This document shows positions 7,506-16,114 of a DNA stretch of 64,000 nt, piece after piece; within the stretch, counting starts at the first letter, position 1; the number at the start of each line of letters is the position of its first letter. The stretch covers positions 186,001 through 250,000 of the forward strand of contig JABVCE010000011.1 in the NCBI GenBank assembly GCA_014905635.1, in the 5' to 3' direction. The stretch is from Scenedesmus sp. PABB004 (Eukaryota). The position numbers and the translations under genes are program-made. Under the pieces are notes generated by a model. It was not told the DNA's origin, did not search any database, and worked only from the letters and a program-made list of their open reading frames with translations.

Positions 7506-10500
7506 ATGCGCGCGGGCGCGCTGCGCCGCGGCGCGGCCCCGGCGCGGGCGCTCGCCCCGCGCGCGCTCAAAACGCCAGCAGCGCGGCGCGGGCGCGCCGT
7601 GGCGGTGCGGCTGAGCCACTACAGCGCTGCCTTCTACGACCTGCAGGCGCAGCGCCCGCTCGACGCGCTGGACTCGCTGGCGCCGCAGCAGCTCGCGCAT
7701 CTCGTGCACGGTGCGCGGCCCCCAGGCGGCCAGGACGGCCCCACCGGCCGCCGGGACGGCGGGCCCTGCTGTCCCCGCGCCCGCAGCGCGCTGCGCAGCT
7801 GCGACGCGGCGCCGCGGCGCCGCGGCGCGCCAGCAACACGTAGCGCTGCTGCCGCGTCAGCGGGCGCGCCGCCGCCGCCCGCCGCCGCGCTGCGCGCGCC
7901 CCGGACTCTGGCGCCCCGCCTGCCAATCCCTCCCGCCCCGCCCTCCCGCCCTCCCTCCCCGCGGCAGGCGCGGCGGCGGGCGGCCTGAGCGCGAGCGGCG
8001 CGCTCTACCTGGCCACGTTTTGCGCGCTCTCGGTCACGCTCGGGGCGCTGTTCTACAGCCTCACCTCCGTGCTCAACGAGTACTTTGACCTACAGGCCCG
8101 CCTCACCAGCAGGCCGCAGGTGCGGGGGCGGGGCCGGAGAGGCGCAGCGCGCGCGCGGCGCGGCGACGCGACGCGACGCGCCCGGCCGCGCCCGACGCCC
8201 GGCCGCGCCCGACGCCCGGACGCGCCCGCCCGCCCGCGCCGCGCAGGAGCGGCCGACGCTGCACGGCGTCGACGTGTCGCGCAGCGCGATGTTCACGGGC
8301 AGCGCGCGCGTGCGCGCCGCCGCCGACTTTGCGGCGGCCGCGCACGCGGGGCAGCGCCGCAAGACGGGCGAGCCGTACGTGCGGCACTGCATCGAGACCG
8401 CGCTCATCGTGGAGGCCAACCTCCCGCACTGGCGCCACGACAGCAGGTGCGGCGACGCCGCGGCGCGCGCGCCCGCGCCCGCGCCCGCGCCCCGCGCCGC
8501 GGCGGTGTCTTGCCGCGGCGGCGGCATCTGCCCACCGCGCCTGCCCCGCGCGCGCGCGTGCGCTGCCAGGCACGAGGACGCTGTCATTGCCGCGCTGCTG
8601 CACGACACGCTCGACGACACGCCCACCACGCCCGAGGCGATCGGCGCCGCATACGGCCCCGCCGTCGCGGCGATGGTGGTCAAGGTCTCCAAGCTCTCCC
8701 AGGTCAACCAGATGCTGCGCCGCGACAAGCGCAAGGTGCGTTTGCCCCGCCGCCGCCGCGCGCCCCGCGCCGCGCTGCCCGCACGCCCCCGCCGCCGCGC
8801 GCGCGCCGCGCCGCGCACCACGCCGCGCCGCGCCGCCCGCCGCGCCGCCGCGGCGTCGCACCGCACCGCGCCGCGCGTCCCGCTCCGCAGGGCGTCGTGT
8901 CTGGCGACCCGGGGTTCTGGGCGAGCCAGTGGGGCCGGCTGAAGCGCATGATGTTTGAGGCGGTCGTGGAGGAGCCGCTGGTCATCCTTGTCAAGCTCGC
9001 CGACCGCCTGCACAACATGCGCACCGTGTACGCGCTGCCGCCGGCGAAGCAGCAGGCGGTCGCGGAGGAGACGCTCGCGGTGTGGTGCTCCATGGCCGCG
9101 TCGCTCGGCTGGCACGGCCTCAAGGCGCGGCGCGCGGCGCGGCCCGGCGCGGCGCGGCGCGCCCCCGCGCGGCGCGGCGCAGCGCGCCCGCCCACGCTGC
9201 CCCGCCCCCGCGCTGCCCCGCCCCCGCGCTGCCGCGTCGCACAGAGTGAGATGGAGGACCTGTGCTTTGCCGTGGTGCAGCCGGCGCGGTACTGCGCGCT
9301 TCGCCAGGAGCTGGACAAGCTCTGGTCGTCGCCGCCGCCGCCGCGCAGCCGGCGCCGGGTGCGCGCGACACGGCGCGCCGCGCAGCTCGCGGCGCTGGCG
9401 CAGGCGCAGGCCGCGCTGGACGAGGCACGCGCGGAGGCGCGCGCGGAGCCCGGCGGCGCGCTGGGGCGCGGCCTGCGCGGCCTGCGCGCCCGGCTGTGGG
9501 GCCCGCCGCCGGCGCGCGGCGGCGGCGGCGGCGCGCAGCAGCAGCAGCTGGACGCGGGCCAGCTGCAGGCGGTCGCCGAGCGCGCCCAGGACGGCAGCGC
9601 GGTCGCTGCCGCGGGCAGCGCCGGCAGCCAGCAGCAGGCGCTGCAGGCGCAGGCGCAGCAGCAGCAGCTGCTGCAGCAGCAGCCGCAGCAGCAGGCGGCG
9701 GGGCTCAACCTGCTGTCGCGCGCGTGGCAGTCGGCCGCCGCGCCGCTGCTGCCGGCGCCGCCCGAGCCGGACGGCACGGACCCGCAGCGGCCCGGCGGCG
9801 GCGAGTGGGGCGTGACGGACGCCGCGCTCAGCCTGCGCGCGCTCCTGGGCGCCGGCCGGGCGCCGGGCGCCGCGGACGGCGGCGTCGCCGCCGCGGCGGC
9901 GGGCGGCGCGCAGCCGGCGCCGGCGCCGCCCGGCGGCGCCGCCGCGCTGACCGCGCAGCAGCAGCAGCTCCGCGCTGTGCTGTCCACGGTCGTGCCGTTT
10001 GACGCGGTCAGCCTGCGGGGCAGCCGCGGGTTGACCTGGTCGGCGCGGCAGGGGCTGTCGGTGCTCGAGGAGGCCGCGGGGCGCCTCTACACCGAGCTCG
10101 CCGTCGGCAGCTTCAGCTGCGGCCTCGGCGTGGAGATCCAGGGCCGGCTCAAGAGCCTGCGCAGCGTGAACGCCAAGATGGAGCGCAAGGCCTGCAGCGT
10201 CGAGGTGCGCGGCCCGCGCCGGCGCCGCGCCCGCCGACGCCGCGGCCCAGCGCGCGCCGCCGCGGCCCGCCGACGCCGCGCGCGCCCCGCCCCCGCCCCC
10301 GCCCCCGCCCCCGCCCGGGCGCCGCCGCCGCCGCGCCTCTGCAGGAGGTGTACGACGCGCGCGCGCTGCGCGTGGTGGTCGACGACGCCGGCGGCACGCG
10401 GCTGGCCGACGCGGTGCAGTGCTGCTACCGCCTGGTCGGCGCGGTGCACAAGCTCTGGTACCCGATACACGGCGAGTTCGATGACTATGTGGCCAACCCC

Positions 10501-13793: not shown

Positions 13794-14257
13794 TTACGAC
13801 GCGGCCGCCGGCTTGGCGCTGGCAGCCGACGAGCCCACGGCGGCGGGCGCCCCGCCGCCGCCCTTGGCACCGCCGCCGCCGCCACCCGCCGCCGCTGCCG
13901 CCACGCTGCTGCCCGCGCCCCCGGCGGCCGAGGCCGCCGCGGCGCTGCTGCCCGCGGCCGCAGCGCTGCGGCTTCCCACGGCTGCGGCCGCCGCGGCCGC
14001 GGCGGCGGCTGCCGCGGCTGCAGCGACCGAGTTCGCGGCCGGCAGCGTGATGGCCTTCGCGGCGAGGATGCCCTGGCTGTTGTTGGTCGCCGCCGCCATG
14101 GCGGGCGCGGCGGGCGCGGCGGCAAAACTGTGCAGGCAGTTGGCGCCAGGCGCGAGCCGCACAATCTGCGGCAGCATCACGCCCGTCGGCAGCATGCCGC
14201 CCGCCGCCGCGGCGGCGCGCTGGCTCGCAGCCAGGGCCGCGAGCTGCACCATCGACA

Positions 14258-14308
<51 letters not shown>

Positions 14309-14494
14309 TGCCGCCCGCGCTGCCGCGCGCGCTGCCGCCCGCCGCCGCGGCCGCGGCCGCGGCCGTGGCGGCCAGCTGTGCTGCCTGCAGCTGCTGCAGC
14401 TGCGCCAGCGCGCTCGCCGGCAGCACGTATGTGAGGGGGACACCCATCGGCAGCATGACCTGCTGCGGCTGCCATGCTGCCGAGGCATCACCTG
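13794..14494 (-). other. Orphan terminal exon encoding a Gln/Ala/Gly-rich low-complexity protein tail
   Basis: Open frame ..GDASAAWQPQQVMLPMGVPLTYVLPASALAQLQQLQ..AKPAAAS ending in TAA at 13794, followed by UTR-like, more AT-rich sequence; no upstream exons recognisable. Confidence 0.5.
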
Positions 14495-14717
14495 CTCTGT
14501 TTGCGGGGCGCGCGTGGAGAAGCTGCGGGGCATCTATGGTCTGGTGCAGTGCCCCGGGTGCACGGTCGTCGCGCCGCGCGATGACAACGCGGCGCGCAAC
14601 ATCTGCGCGCTCACGCTGCACGAGTTGCTGCGCGGCGGCCGCGGCACGGCGGGCGGCGCGCGCCTCGCCGGCGCGTTCCGGCAGGCGGCCGCCGCCGCGG
14701 TGGACCCCCCGGCGTGA
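14481..14717 (+). mobile_element. C-terminal fragment of a TnpB/Fanzor-type RNA-guided nuclease (Zn ribbon plus RuvC-III), 5'-truncated
   Basis: TCSVCG-x-RGIYGLVQCPGC-x5-RDDNAARNI (RDDNAARNI at 14577-14603), stop at 14715-14717. This matches the CxxC..CxxC..RDxNAAxNI signature; no RuvC-I/II is visible upstream. Confidence 0.8.
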
Positions 14718-14744
14718 GCGGCGTGTGCGGTGCGCTGCGCTCTC

Positions 14745-14962
14745 CGTCCTGGGCAGGACGTTAAAAGGCCTCTTGCTGTTGTGTTGTGTTGCCAGGTTAG
14801 GTCAGGCGTGTGCGCGTGCGTTTCTCGCCTTGTCACCCGTTCCGGGTGGGGGGGACCCCTCGCGGGGCACCGACCTGCGGGCCGGTCCCAAACCGTTATG
14901 CCTCGCGCCGCTGTGGCCTGTTTCAGGCGGCCGGCGATCAGAGGATGCCCATGGTCGGTGTT
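14745..14962 (+). ncRNA. Candidate omega-RNA scaffold / element right end downstream of the Fanzor-like fragment
   Basis: Hairpins: CGTCCT/AGGACG (14745-14760), CACCCG/CGGGTG (14834-14848), CCCC/GGGG (14856-14867). A multibranch domain is closed by CACCGACC/GGTCGGTG (14868-14875/14953-14960) and encloses GGGC/GCCC, CGGT/ACCG, CCTC/GAGG, CGCCG/CGGCG and GCCTG/CAGGC. Confidence 0.6.
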
Positions 14963-15075
14963 GGCGGCGGCGGCGCGCGCGCGCGGTGGTGGCAGCGCCG
15001 CGCACGCGCGCCGCGCGCCCGCGGCGCCGGGGCGCCCCCGGGGCGCCCCGGCAGCCCCCATCCCCCCAGCCGCCG

Positions 15076-16114
15076 GTGTTGAGACCACCGGCCGGCGCTC
15101 CCACGGCGGTAGCGAGGCCGGGGAGCACGCCCCCCGGGGCGTCCATCGTCGCGTAGCCGCACTACGCGCTGGCGCAGCGGGGCATCCCCACGCACTATCG
15201 CGTCTCGCGCACCTACCAGACGCAGGGCGCGCCCTGCCGCCGGTGCGCCGGGGGCAGGACTGCGCGGGCAACGCGCTGCGGGCGCGGCGGTCCCCCGGCG
15301 CCGTCGCCGCGGTGCCGACGTCGCCGCTGCCCGCCGTCGCCGCTGCCCGCTGTCCAACTGCAGCCTGTTCAGGGACATGTGGGACAGGATGGCGAACTGG
15401 GCGCGCTGCAGCTACGAATGGAGCCGCGTCGCGTCGCTGCTGGCGCCCGCGGGGCGCCGCGCGCCGCAGCTCCACGAGCGCGCCTGGCGCGTGCGCGCGC
15501 AGGGGCCGGACGACATTGCCGCGCCGCGCACGAGATGCGCGCCATGAGCGGCGACACCACGCTGCCGCGCTGGCTGCACGACGAGGGCTGGGCGCAGCGC
15601 GGACACGCGCACTTGACGCATTCGGCTGTACCTCGAGAGCGGGGCGCACGGCGCCTTCATGCAGCTGCGCCGCGCTGAGTCCGGCCAGGTGCGCAGCTGC
15701 CCGGCAGCGGCGCTGCCGCCGCCGCCGGCGCGCCGGGCGGCCGCCCGCGCCGGCCGTGCTGCGACTTCTGAGCGCCCCAATGCTGCTGCCCGACAGGCGA
15801 CCCTGGTGCACGTGCCGTCGGGCGGCATGCTGCTGATGTGGGAGCATGGGCTGGAGCACGCGGCGTGGGTGCGGCCGGGCGAGGTGCGCCTCATGGCGCG
15901 CCTGCAGATGGGCTTCGGGCCCACGCTCGACTACTGCCGCGGCGGCTGCGGCATCCCCTCGTGCGAGGACATGCCGCACCGCGCGCGGGCGCAGCCGCCG
16001 CTGCTCGTGCCGGCCGCCGCGGTGGAGCTCGACCGCGCGGCCCCCAGCTGCGACGGCCACGGCGTCCCCTTCGCCGGTGCCGCGCCGGCCACCAGCAGCG
16101 GTGCGCTGGTGTGA
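15076..16114 (+). pseudogene. Decayed spliced gene with 2OG-Fe(II) dioxygenase-like C-terminal motifs
   Basis: Phase-compatible introns 15243-15372 and 15689-15796. Pieces read WLHDEG / IRLYLESGAHGAF / VHVPSGGMLLMWEHGLEHAAWVRPGEVRLMAR. In-frame TAG at 15154-15156 and frameshifts near 15520 and 15618. Confidence 0.45.

Follow-up and report, generated by a model that had tools for sequence, protein, structure and literature searches.

Positions 14487–14962 of the window (the whole 64-kb stretch of DNA that was analysed) are the 3′ end of a 5′-truncated Fanzor element of about 476 bp in green-algal nuclear DNA. The window was assigned to a green-algal nucleus because of its composition (~80% GC) and its intron-split neighbouring genes, which we take to encode a RelA/SpoT homologue and a light-harvesting protein. 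The features of the locus are as follows:

13794–14484, minus strand: host gene (inferred gene model), with an apparent last exon at 13794–14476 and the intron end (AG, 14478–77).
14487–14717, plus strand: 5′-truncated C-terminus of a Fanzor protein, with a C4 zinc finger, RuvC-III (RD-N motif) and the stop codon TGA at 14715–17.
14745–14771, plus strand: putative coremin-like H-type pseudoknot of 27 nt (phage matches, stem-2 covariation).
14772–14865, plus strand: variable central part of the tail, UG-rich in one stretch and with hairpin candidates (second-subfamily differences at 14782–14863, fold tests).
14866–14962, plus strand: predicted multibranch domain closed by helix 14868–75/14953–60, candidate omega-RNA core (folding z −2.59).
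14963–14980, plus strand: host flank and would-be guide source, (GGC)n then (GC)n (GC changepoint at 14963).

The open reading frame (ORF) upstream of the tail had been called Fanzor in the preliminary description, and a Pfam search bore this out by matching its end to PF07282 above the cut-off (E 1.4e-6). The zinc finger of the window copy is followed by the RD-N motif of RuvC-III; however, the RuvC triad is incomplete, with the copy cut at 14485–87 and two of the three catalytic residues absent. The cut was placed there because a contig from a freshwater metagenome (X1) reads on 5′ into the missing DEHRT codons; the GC at 14485–86 may be host or element sequence. The window copy has lost RuvC-I together with the catalytic Glu of Fanzors (DE..TS) and so cannot act as a nuclease. 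The best PDB match of the remnant was the mimivirus Fanzor2 9b0l (E 1.7e-4), and an IS607 TnpB family of NCBIfam was matched at E 1.8e-5 but far below the cut-off of the model. The extra residues of its protein relative P0001 align by eye with CRe-2/CRe-3 Fanzor1 (GGCIS, GP.R.LL.LL, YA, and DE..TS), yet the best PDB match is a Fanzor2; the element is probably a Fanzor1 of the Chlamydomonas CRe-2/3 type.

P0001 was the sole protein match among the 56 and 622 candidates of two homologue searches. This protein is a gene model that its source names as coming from Scenedesmus sp. PABB004. Over the part encoded by 14487–14717 it is 100% identical; at its N-terminus it runs on for another 39 residues, and it also carries a fused SSB-like domain for which the window has no coding sequence. 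Because of the extra residues and the fusion, it was taken to represent a separate locus. The gene model appears mis-spliced, as if another Fanzor fragment had been joined to an SSB-like OB-fold gene. No homologue was found among 4 further candidates, among 50% representatives (0 matches) or in phages; loci encoding the protein were confirmed in none of 43 viral and none of 597 metagenome stretches; no second copy of the element was found within the 64-kb window; and a 19-nt pattern from the 3′ domain had 0 viral matches. Read-run contigs from 4 of 17 listed runs (X1, X5, X6, and X13) were aligned to the element. The X1 contig spans 14485–14896 with 2 differences over 412 nt and extends 5′ into codons missing from the window copy (AVLMDEHRT), while the X6 contig has 1 difference over 256 nt (at 14853, there under a depth of 5) and an X5 contig extends to 14934 with 1 difference. 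The rearranged catalytic Glu (DE..TS) before the zinc finger is present in P0001 and in the 5′ extension of the X1 contig. The X5 contigs, from a metatranscriptome, span 14678–14934 at a depth of 2 on the 5′ piece versus 4 and 3.6 on the others, a depth that was not used as evidence of expression since the contigs show no strand, level or ends. A second subfamily was detected in X13 and in one X5 contig, with 4–5 substitutions and 13 gap letters. In X13, all nine change events fall within 14782–14863 and 14710–14781 is unchanged; by our own arithmetic none of nine changes in the latter interval has p ~0.007, a value to be read with the caveat that the contigs were found via shared 31-mers, which biases toward one invariant block. 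Other copies, whose existence the preliminary description had left to be checked, are represented by P0001, X1, X6, X13, and X5. The element belongs to a multi-member family, of which near-identical longer copies (~99.5% identity to the window copy) and a second subfamily exist elsewhere.

The 3′ boundary of the element was examined by composition and by reconstruction of the empty site. The GC content is 65.6% in 14745–14962 versus 92.6% in 14963–15070; the best changepoint is at 14963, and a GC content as low as that of 14745–14962 is reached by only 0.2% of 218-nt windows across the 64 kb. The break reported after ~14962 is real as a sharp shift in composition. On the minus strand, an open frame ends at a stop at 13794, and the element appears to sit ~8 nt inside an intron of this host gene. 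When 14484/14486 is joined to 14963, the empty site on the minus strand shows a run rich in C that closes with CAG just ahead of an open reading frame, and this resembles the C-rich intron ends of a neighbouring gene (e.g., at 10344). The C fraction of the empty site (0.58) is reached by ~5% of 2985 CAG sites, while the intron end with the element in place is not C-rich; scores for element ends at 14964–66 are nearly equal. From the changepoint and the empty site, the right end probably lies at 14962 ± 3. No copy reaching the right end with a different 3′ flank was found among the contigs or in the viral and metagenome collections, and for this reason we infer the boundary and the start of the guide. 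The earlier placement of the right end at 14962–64 is consistent with both the changepoint and the empty site, but was not matched by a copy in which the flank differs.

Aligned contigs stop at 14878, 14889, 14891, 14896, and 14934. The stops at 14878–14896 were considered as the element end and rejected, as the contigs show no loose ends and the X1 stop adjoins a variant site at 14897. A joint of 14660 to 14962 in X1 was discarded (just 20 letters on one side, in GC-repeat sequence), as were short pieces of 14960–15060 with loose ends as evidence on the right end. No target-site duplication was found at the element, only two unrelated 7-mers, and the left flank is not T-rich. To the right of the element, three ORF pieces had no Pfam match; at 15113–16114 (plus strand), protein-like pieces lie in three frames, pointing to a gene with introns, frameshifts or assembly errors, and an ATG in good start context at 15144–15146 (minus strand) may be the start of the host gene that carries the element in an intron.

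The tail lies between the end of the ORF and the right end (placed to ±3 nt). The preliminary description placed the non-coding right end of a Fanzor here, in the position that omega-RNA scaffolds occupy, and this placement holds; the locus is very probably a scaffold-bearing element end. The first of three hairpins reported there, at 14745–60, makes better sense as stem 1 of a pseudoknot that the preliminary description had missed. The putative knot begins 28 nt 3′ of the Fanzor stop, in sense orientation, with stem 1 at 14745–48/14757–60 (a fifth pair, 14749/14756, is possible), stem 2 at 14751–54/14768–71, and an A-rich linker at 14761–67. A 19-nt probe from this first hairpin matched three phage contigs that are identical at 25–26 of 26 nt and have no other similarity. 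Relaxed patterns matched 82 stretches from viruses, 113 from metagenomes, 28 from genomes, and then another 13 from viruses, with full flanks taken for 80 stretches per search. The bases 3′ of the A-rich linker were left free in the viral pattern search, yet they covary with the loop. Across 56 distinct viral copies the stem-2 pair was A-U in 47, G-C in 5, G-U in 2, and mismatched in 2 (Fisher p 3e-5), and with the genome set added (78 copies) the counts were 63, 8, 5, and 2, respectively, in statistics that ignore kinship among the copies. As the loop and the 3′ bases covary and the window carries the G-C version, 14745–14771 was classed as an H-type pseudoknot, and it is highly likely that the knot forms as RNA. 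Its chance occurrence in the window is ~8e-9; it is present as a single copy in the 64 kb, both stems are intact and unchanged in the second subfamily, and no Rfam family corresponds to it.

The motif was next considered in its phage and bacterial settings. An upstream ORF lies within 600 nt of 51 of the 107 distinct metagenome copies; in 13 of the 51 cases the motif is 6–24 nt past the stop of that ORF (28 nt in the window). With the window as positive control, a TnpB or Fanzor adjoined the motif at none of 238 loci, none of 48 upstream ORFs was a TnpB, and likeness to the tail beyond the motif was found at 0 of the 238 motif loci. A search of the open literature for the letters of the motif returned nothing relevant, the one match being a hatchet ribozyme oligo. 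Several other observations were made at these loci. Many metagenome loci have an ORF of ~22 codons with a ribosome-binding site and, by eye, CxxxC-like cysteines, the end of which is overlapped by the pseudoknot; the ORF lies in the ~70 nt before the motif (L086, L089, L090, L101, L105, L108, L111, L114, L121, L122, L126, L127, L133, L135, L139, L140, L166, L174, L182, L184, and L189). These ORFs may be an unannotated peptide family, and some follow ArsR or methyltransferase genes. One phage tRNA array (L002:3995–4026, minus strand) has the motif between two tRNA-like genes, with ACCA directly after it, like a tRNA 3′ end. In L109, L152, and L193 it comes after a long (ACT)n microsatellite and before a common GC-rich stretch, possibly a eukaryotic repeat, and in L197 it lies, by eye, between CRISPR-type direct repeats, as if a captured spacer. 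At ten loci (L091, L095, L098, L102, L113, L128, L137, L154, L155, and L159), the motif is followed by a long, apparently strong hairpin; this two-hairpin layout, in related non-coding contexts, is what coremin needs, which makes these loci better Xrn1 candidates than the window copy.

Such a wide distribution (82, 113, and 28 stretches), never beside TnpB, would suit a reading in which the knot is a passenger from viral or bacterial DNA with no Fanzor role and the hairpins are mainly single-stranded DNA signals of a rolling-circle (Helitron2-like) end; Helitron2 ends do carry hairpins according to the accessible text of PMC3627910, and the 3′ domain of the tail folds equally well on both strands. 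We consider this reading improbable, since the motif is in sense 28 nt past the stop, the second subfamily keeps both stems unaltered despite a variable middle, and tested Fanzors carry RNA from this position in the portions available of PMC10530073 and PMC10432273.

Folding of the tail was compared with shuffled sequences. The ~220 nt had been described as densely structured, a view that was not upheld: the whole region, 14745–14985, is ordinary (z −0.84, with 40 of 200 shuffles folding equally well), and other spans of the tail gave z of −0.7 to +0.1. The 3′ domain at 14866–14962 reached z −2.59 on the plus strand and −2.70 on the minus strand, a span that was picked post hoc and compares with 24 of 709 random 97-nt windows at z ≤ −2.6. 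Its proposed 8-bp closing helix (14868–75/14953–60) is indeed perfectly complementary, but its folding depends on context, with a pairing probability of 0.00–0.99 over seven folding contexts. The aligned copies bring no informative changes to 14892–14962, and the 3′ domain shows no covariation. The set of three hairpins reported earlier is not fixed either. Hairpin 14834–48 is lost in the second subfamily (0 of 7 pairs kept); 14856–67 gains one pair, with ~5% of 1,000 random edits folding as well; and 14804–29 retains 5 of its 9 pairs, which is no more than random edits retain. Over 14801–14870 the second subfamily folds better than 300 of 300 random edits, but as a different hairpin. Gaps in 14836–45 were considered as a compensatory change and rejected, as they amount to a 7-nt loss that removes hairpin 14834–48. 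Rfam covariance models gave no match at E ≤ 10 in 14715–14990, and in 14300–15300 only chance-level matches outside that interval. This set aside hatchet and other Rfam families, as well as two likenesses, a pistol-like ‘hairpin + UUAAA’ and a twister-like stretch near 14881–95, for both of which the core elements of the ribozyme are also absent.

Two long-range complementarities, 14750–14755 with 14946–14951 and 14769–14773 with 14940–14944, could enclose the entire tail in a different fold or serve as a switch. The first raises the alternative that the scaffold ends near 14951–52, with loop 14750–55 paired to 14946–51 in a TnpB/Fanzor2-type pseudoknot and the guide starting ~10 nt earlier. 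Although the 6-nt complementarity is perfect, TnpB and Fanzor2 RNAs use such a pseudoknot (as described in the accessible parts of the sources), and the best PDB and NCBIfam matches of the protein are Fanzor2 and IS607 TnpB, this arrangement is very improbable: the loop has a local partner that covaries across the 78 copies, the changepoint and the empty site favour 14963, the 8-bp helix would need flank DNA, and Fanzor1 RNAs, where described in the same material, are without this pseudoknot.

On balance, we favour the explanation that the locus preserves the complete 3′ end of a green-algal Fanzor transposon, with an omega-RNA tail and the knot as a boundary. A 5′-truncated copy of ~476 bp would have inserted near the 3′ end of a host intron. 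In an intact element, a single transcript would span the ORF and the tail; the tail would fold into an omega-RNA scaffold, most likely centred on 14866–14962 with a terminal stem at the element end; the guide would be read from the flank beyond that end; and the 27-nt pseudoknot just past the stop would mark the boundary between mRNA and non-coding RNA. Fanzor1 scaffolds are 75–150 nt and end in a double-stranded stem (PMC10711439, accessible text), and therefore 14866–14962 fits as the core. Tentatively, and by analogy with coremin, the knot could stall the 5′-to-3′ decay of the mRNA by XRN and leave an RNA starting near 14745. Comparably tentative is the broader proposal that this Fanzor family took up an exoribonuclease-blocking knot of a phage/bacterial type related to RNA-virus coremin and may carve its guide RNA from its own mRNA by stalling XRN. 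Such carving would parallel the formation of flavivirus sfRNA, and truncated copies could release guides from read-through transcripts. On the 5′ ends of Fanzor guide RNAs in eukaryotes, the available parts of PMC10530073 suggest only ‘possible RNA processing’.

A less likely reading, though not a negligible one, is that the knot does not block 5′-to-3′ decay but shields the Fanzor mRNA at its 3′ end once the guide RNA has been cut away, or stops ribosomes from entering the scaffold, so that the mature omega-RNA is only ~14866–14980. The motif often lies just past stops and once, in the phage tRNA array, precedes ACCA; in the sources as available, coremin blocks scanning ribosomes too and known Fanzor1 omega-RNAs are 75–150 nt. 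Furthermore, the mature small RNA of the C. reinhardtii CrFNuc system lacks the conserved upstream portion of its tail (PMC10530073), and the mature RNA of the present element may therefore begin well downstream of the knot. Against this reading, the only tested relative of the knot fold acts on 5′-to-3′ decay in the literature available to us.

Returning to the favoured explanation, the flank was examined as the source of the guide. Its first 12 nt have 176 other matches in the 64-kb window and its first 15 nt have 17, compared with a median of 0 for random 12- and 15-mers. The preliminary description had proposed that a scaffold kept after loss of the nuclease could act as a stand-alone guide for a Fanzor in trans, and this idea fared poorly: the predicted guide is of low complexity and the 5′ part of the element is lost. 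It has precedent, as ghost omega-RNAs work with SpuFz1 (PMC10432273) and 20 extra fRNA copies are present in C. reinhardtii (PMC10530073), both as given in the accessible text; a family member with the catalytic Glu exists; and a 5′ roadblock could free a guide from any read-through transcript. That the truncated copy has been kept as a working guide gene is nonetheless very unlikely, as its guide would match very many host sites and its ~99.5% identity to longer copies points to recent insertion rather than long retention. The window copy would be a passive relic that has lost its nuclease and takes its guide from a GGC repeat.

A truncated Fanzor with a guide-RNA tail is ordinary, and stand-alone (ghost) guides are already published (PMC10432273 and PMC10530073, in the parts available); the knot is the part that matters. 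If it stalls Xrn1, it would represent (i) a mechanism of guide biogenesis independent of the nuclease activity of the protein; (ii) a cellular, non-viral use of a coremin-like RNA; and (iii) a function for a very common phage/bacterial pseudoknot family. The mostly open-access literature searched contained no paper pairing Fanzor with Xrn, and Fanzor was mentioned in none of the xrRNA-related matches listed.

Comparison with known Fanzor systems places the element near the CRe-1/2/3 Fanzor1 elements as described in the accessible parts of Bao and Jurka 2013 (PMC3627910). Both have a green-algal host and, by eye, share C-terminal motifs and a non-coding tail of ~250–300 nt past the stop, and a CRe-2 tail stretch (GGGCAC ... 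GCGGGC ... AAACCG) resembles 14865–14895, by eye only; CRe elements are, moreover, often 5′-truncated with intact 3′ ends. In contrast, many CRe elements have a target-site duplication and a TTTT left flank, both of which the window copy lacks, and no CRe-type ATIR-plus-hairpin end was seen at the window element. With respect to Helitron2 (CRe-type), it shows no duplication of 7–19 bp and no insertion after a T-rich tetramer. Inspection of the available CRe-1/2/3 tails revealed no coremin-like knot. Within the Fanzor element files of PMC3627910 (12 of 14 files, with line breaks a possible source of missed matches), the string GACGTTAAA occurs once, in a coding-like stretch that is unrelated; it is absent from two supplements of PMC10530073 (Jiang et al. 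2023).

Similar to the SpuFz1 omega-RNA (Saito et al. 2023, PMC10432273; PMC10711439; PMC11423790, each in its accessible part), the putative scaffold lies between the stop and the right end, and as in the SpuFz1/Fanzor1 reRNA it would have a terminal stem and a guide from the flank; nuclease-less copies are known there too. Fanzor1 scaffolds or omega-RNAs of 75–150 nt contrast with the tail of 245 nt at the window copy. The 27-nt gene-boundary pseudoknot of phages and bacteria shares near-identical sequence, both stems, and a position just past a stop with the window copy, which differs in being eukaryotic, nuclear, and placed behind a Fanzor ORF.

For coremin, the accessible parts of the literature report that Xrn1 stalls one nucleotide 5′ of hairpin 1 and loops as long as 8 nt are tolerated (PMC10520033), that the loop consensus is YGAD/YGNNAD and two base pairs can suffice for hairpin 2, that a variant with a Watson-Crick pseudoknot (xrRNA-WCC) also resists Xrn1 (PMC10321173), and that ordinary H-type (frameshift) pseudoknots cause no Xrn1 stall. 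The window knot differs in its loop of 8 nt (6 nt with the fifth pair), a stem 2 of four pairs, a longer spacer, and its residence in a nuclear DNA transposon rather than an RNA virus. Its loop falls outside YGAD/YGNNAD (U at position 2 in the 8-nt reading, or C at position 5 in the 6-nt reading) and is not the 4-nt loop starting with G given for xrRNA-WCC in the available text of PMC10321173; hairpin 2 after the spacer, at −2.2 kcal/mol, is weaker than in about three quarters of 174 motif copies. Because the loop departs from both the consensus and the G-first rule and hairpin 2 is weak, the knot was not classed as coremin. Nonetheless, its hairpin 1 falls within the 3–5 bp of coremin and is followed by a UUAAA-type spacer; the hairpin-1 stem and the start of the spacer match the published 20-nt motif (GUC...GAC-GUUAAA; PMC6546385, PMC10520033, and PMC10321173, as far as accessible); like coremin it lies in a 3′ UTR; and like xrRNA-WCC it has a Watson-Crick stem 2 between loop and spacer, with covariation. 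By this analogy, the knot may work like coremin.
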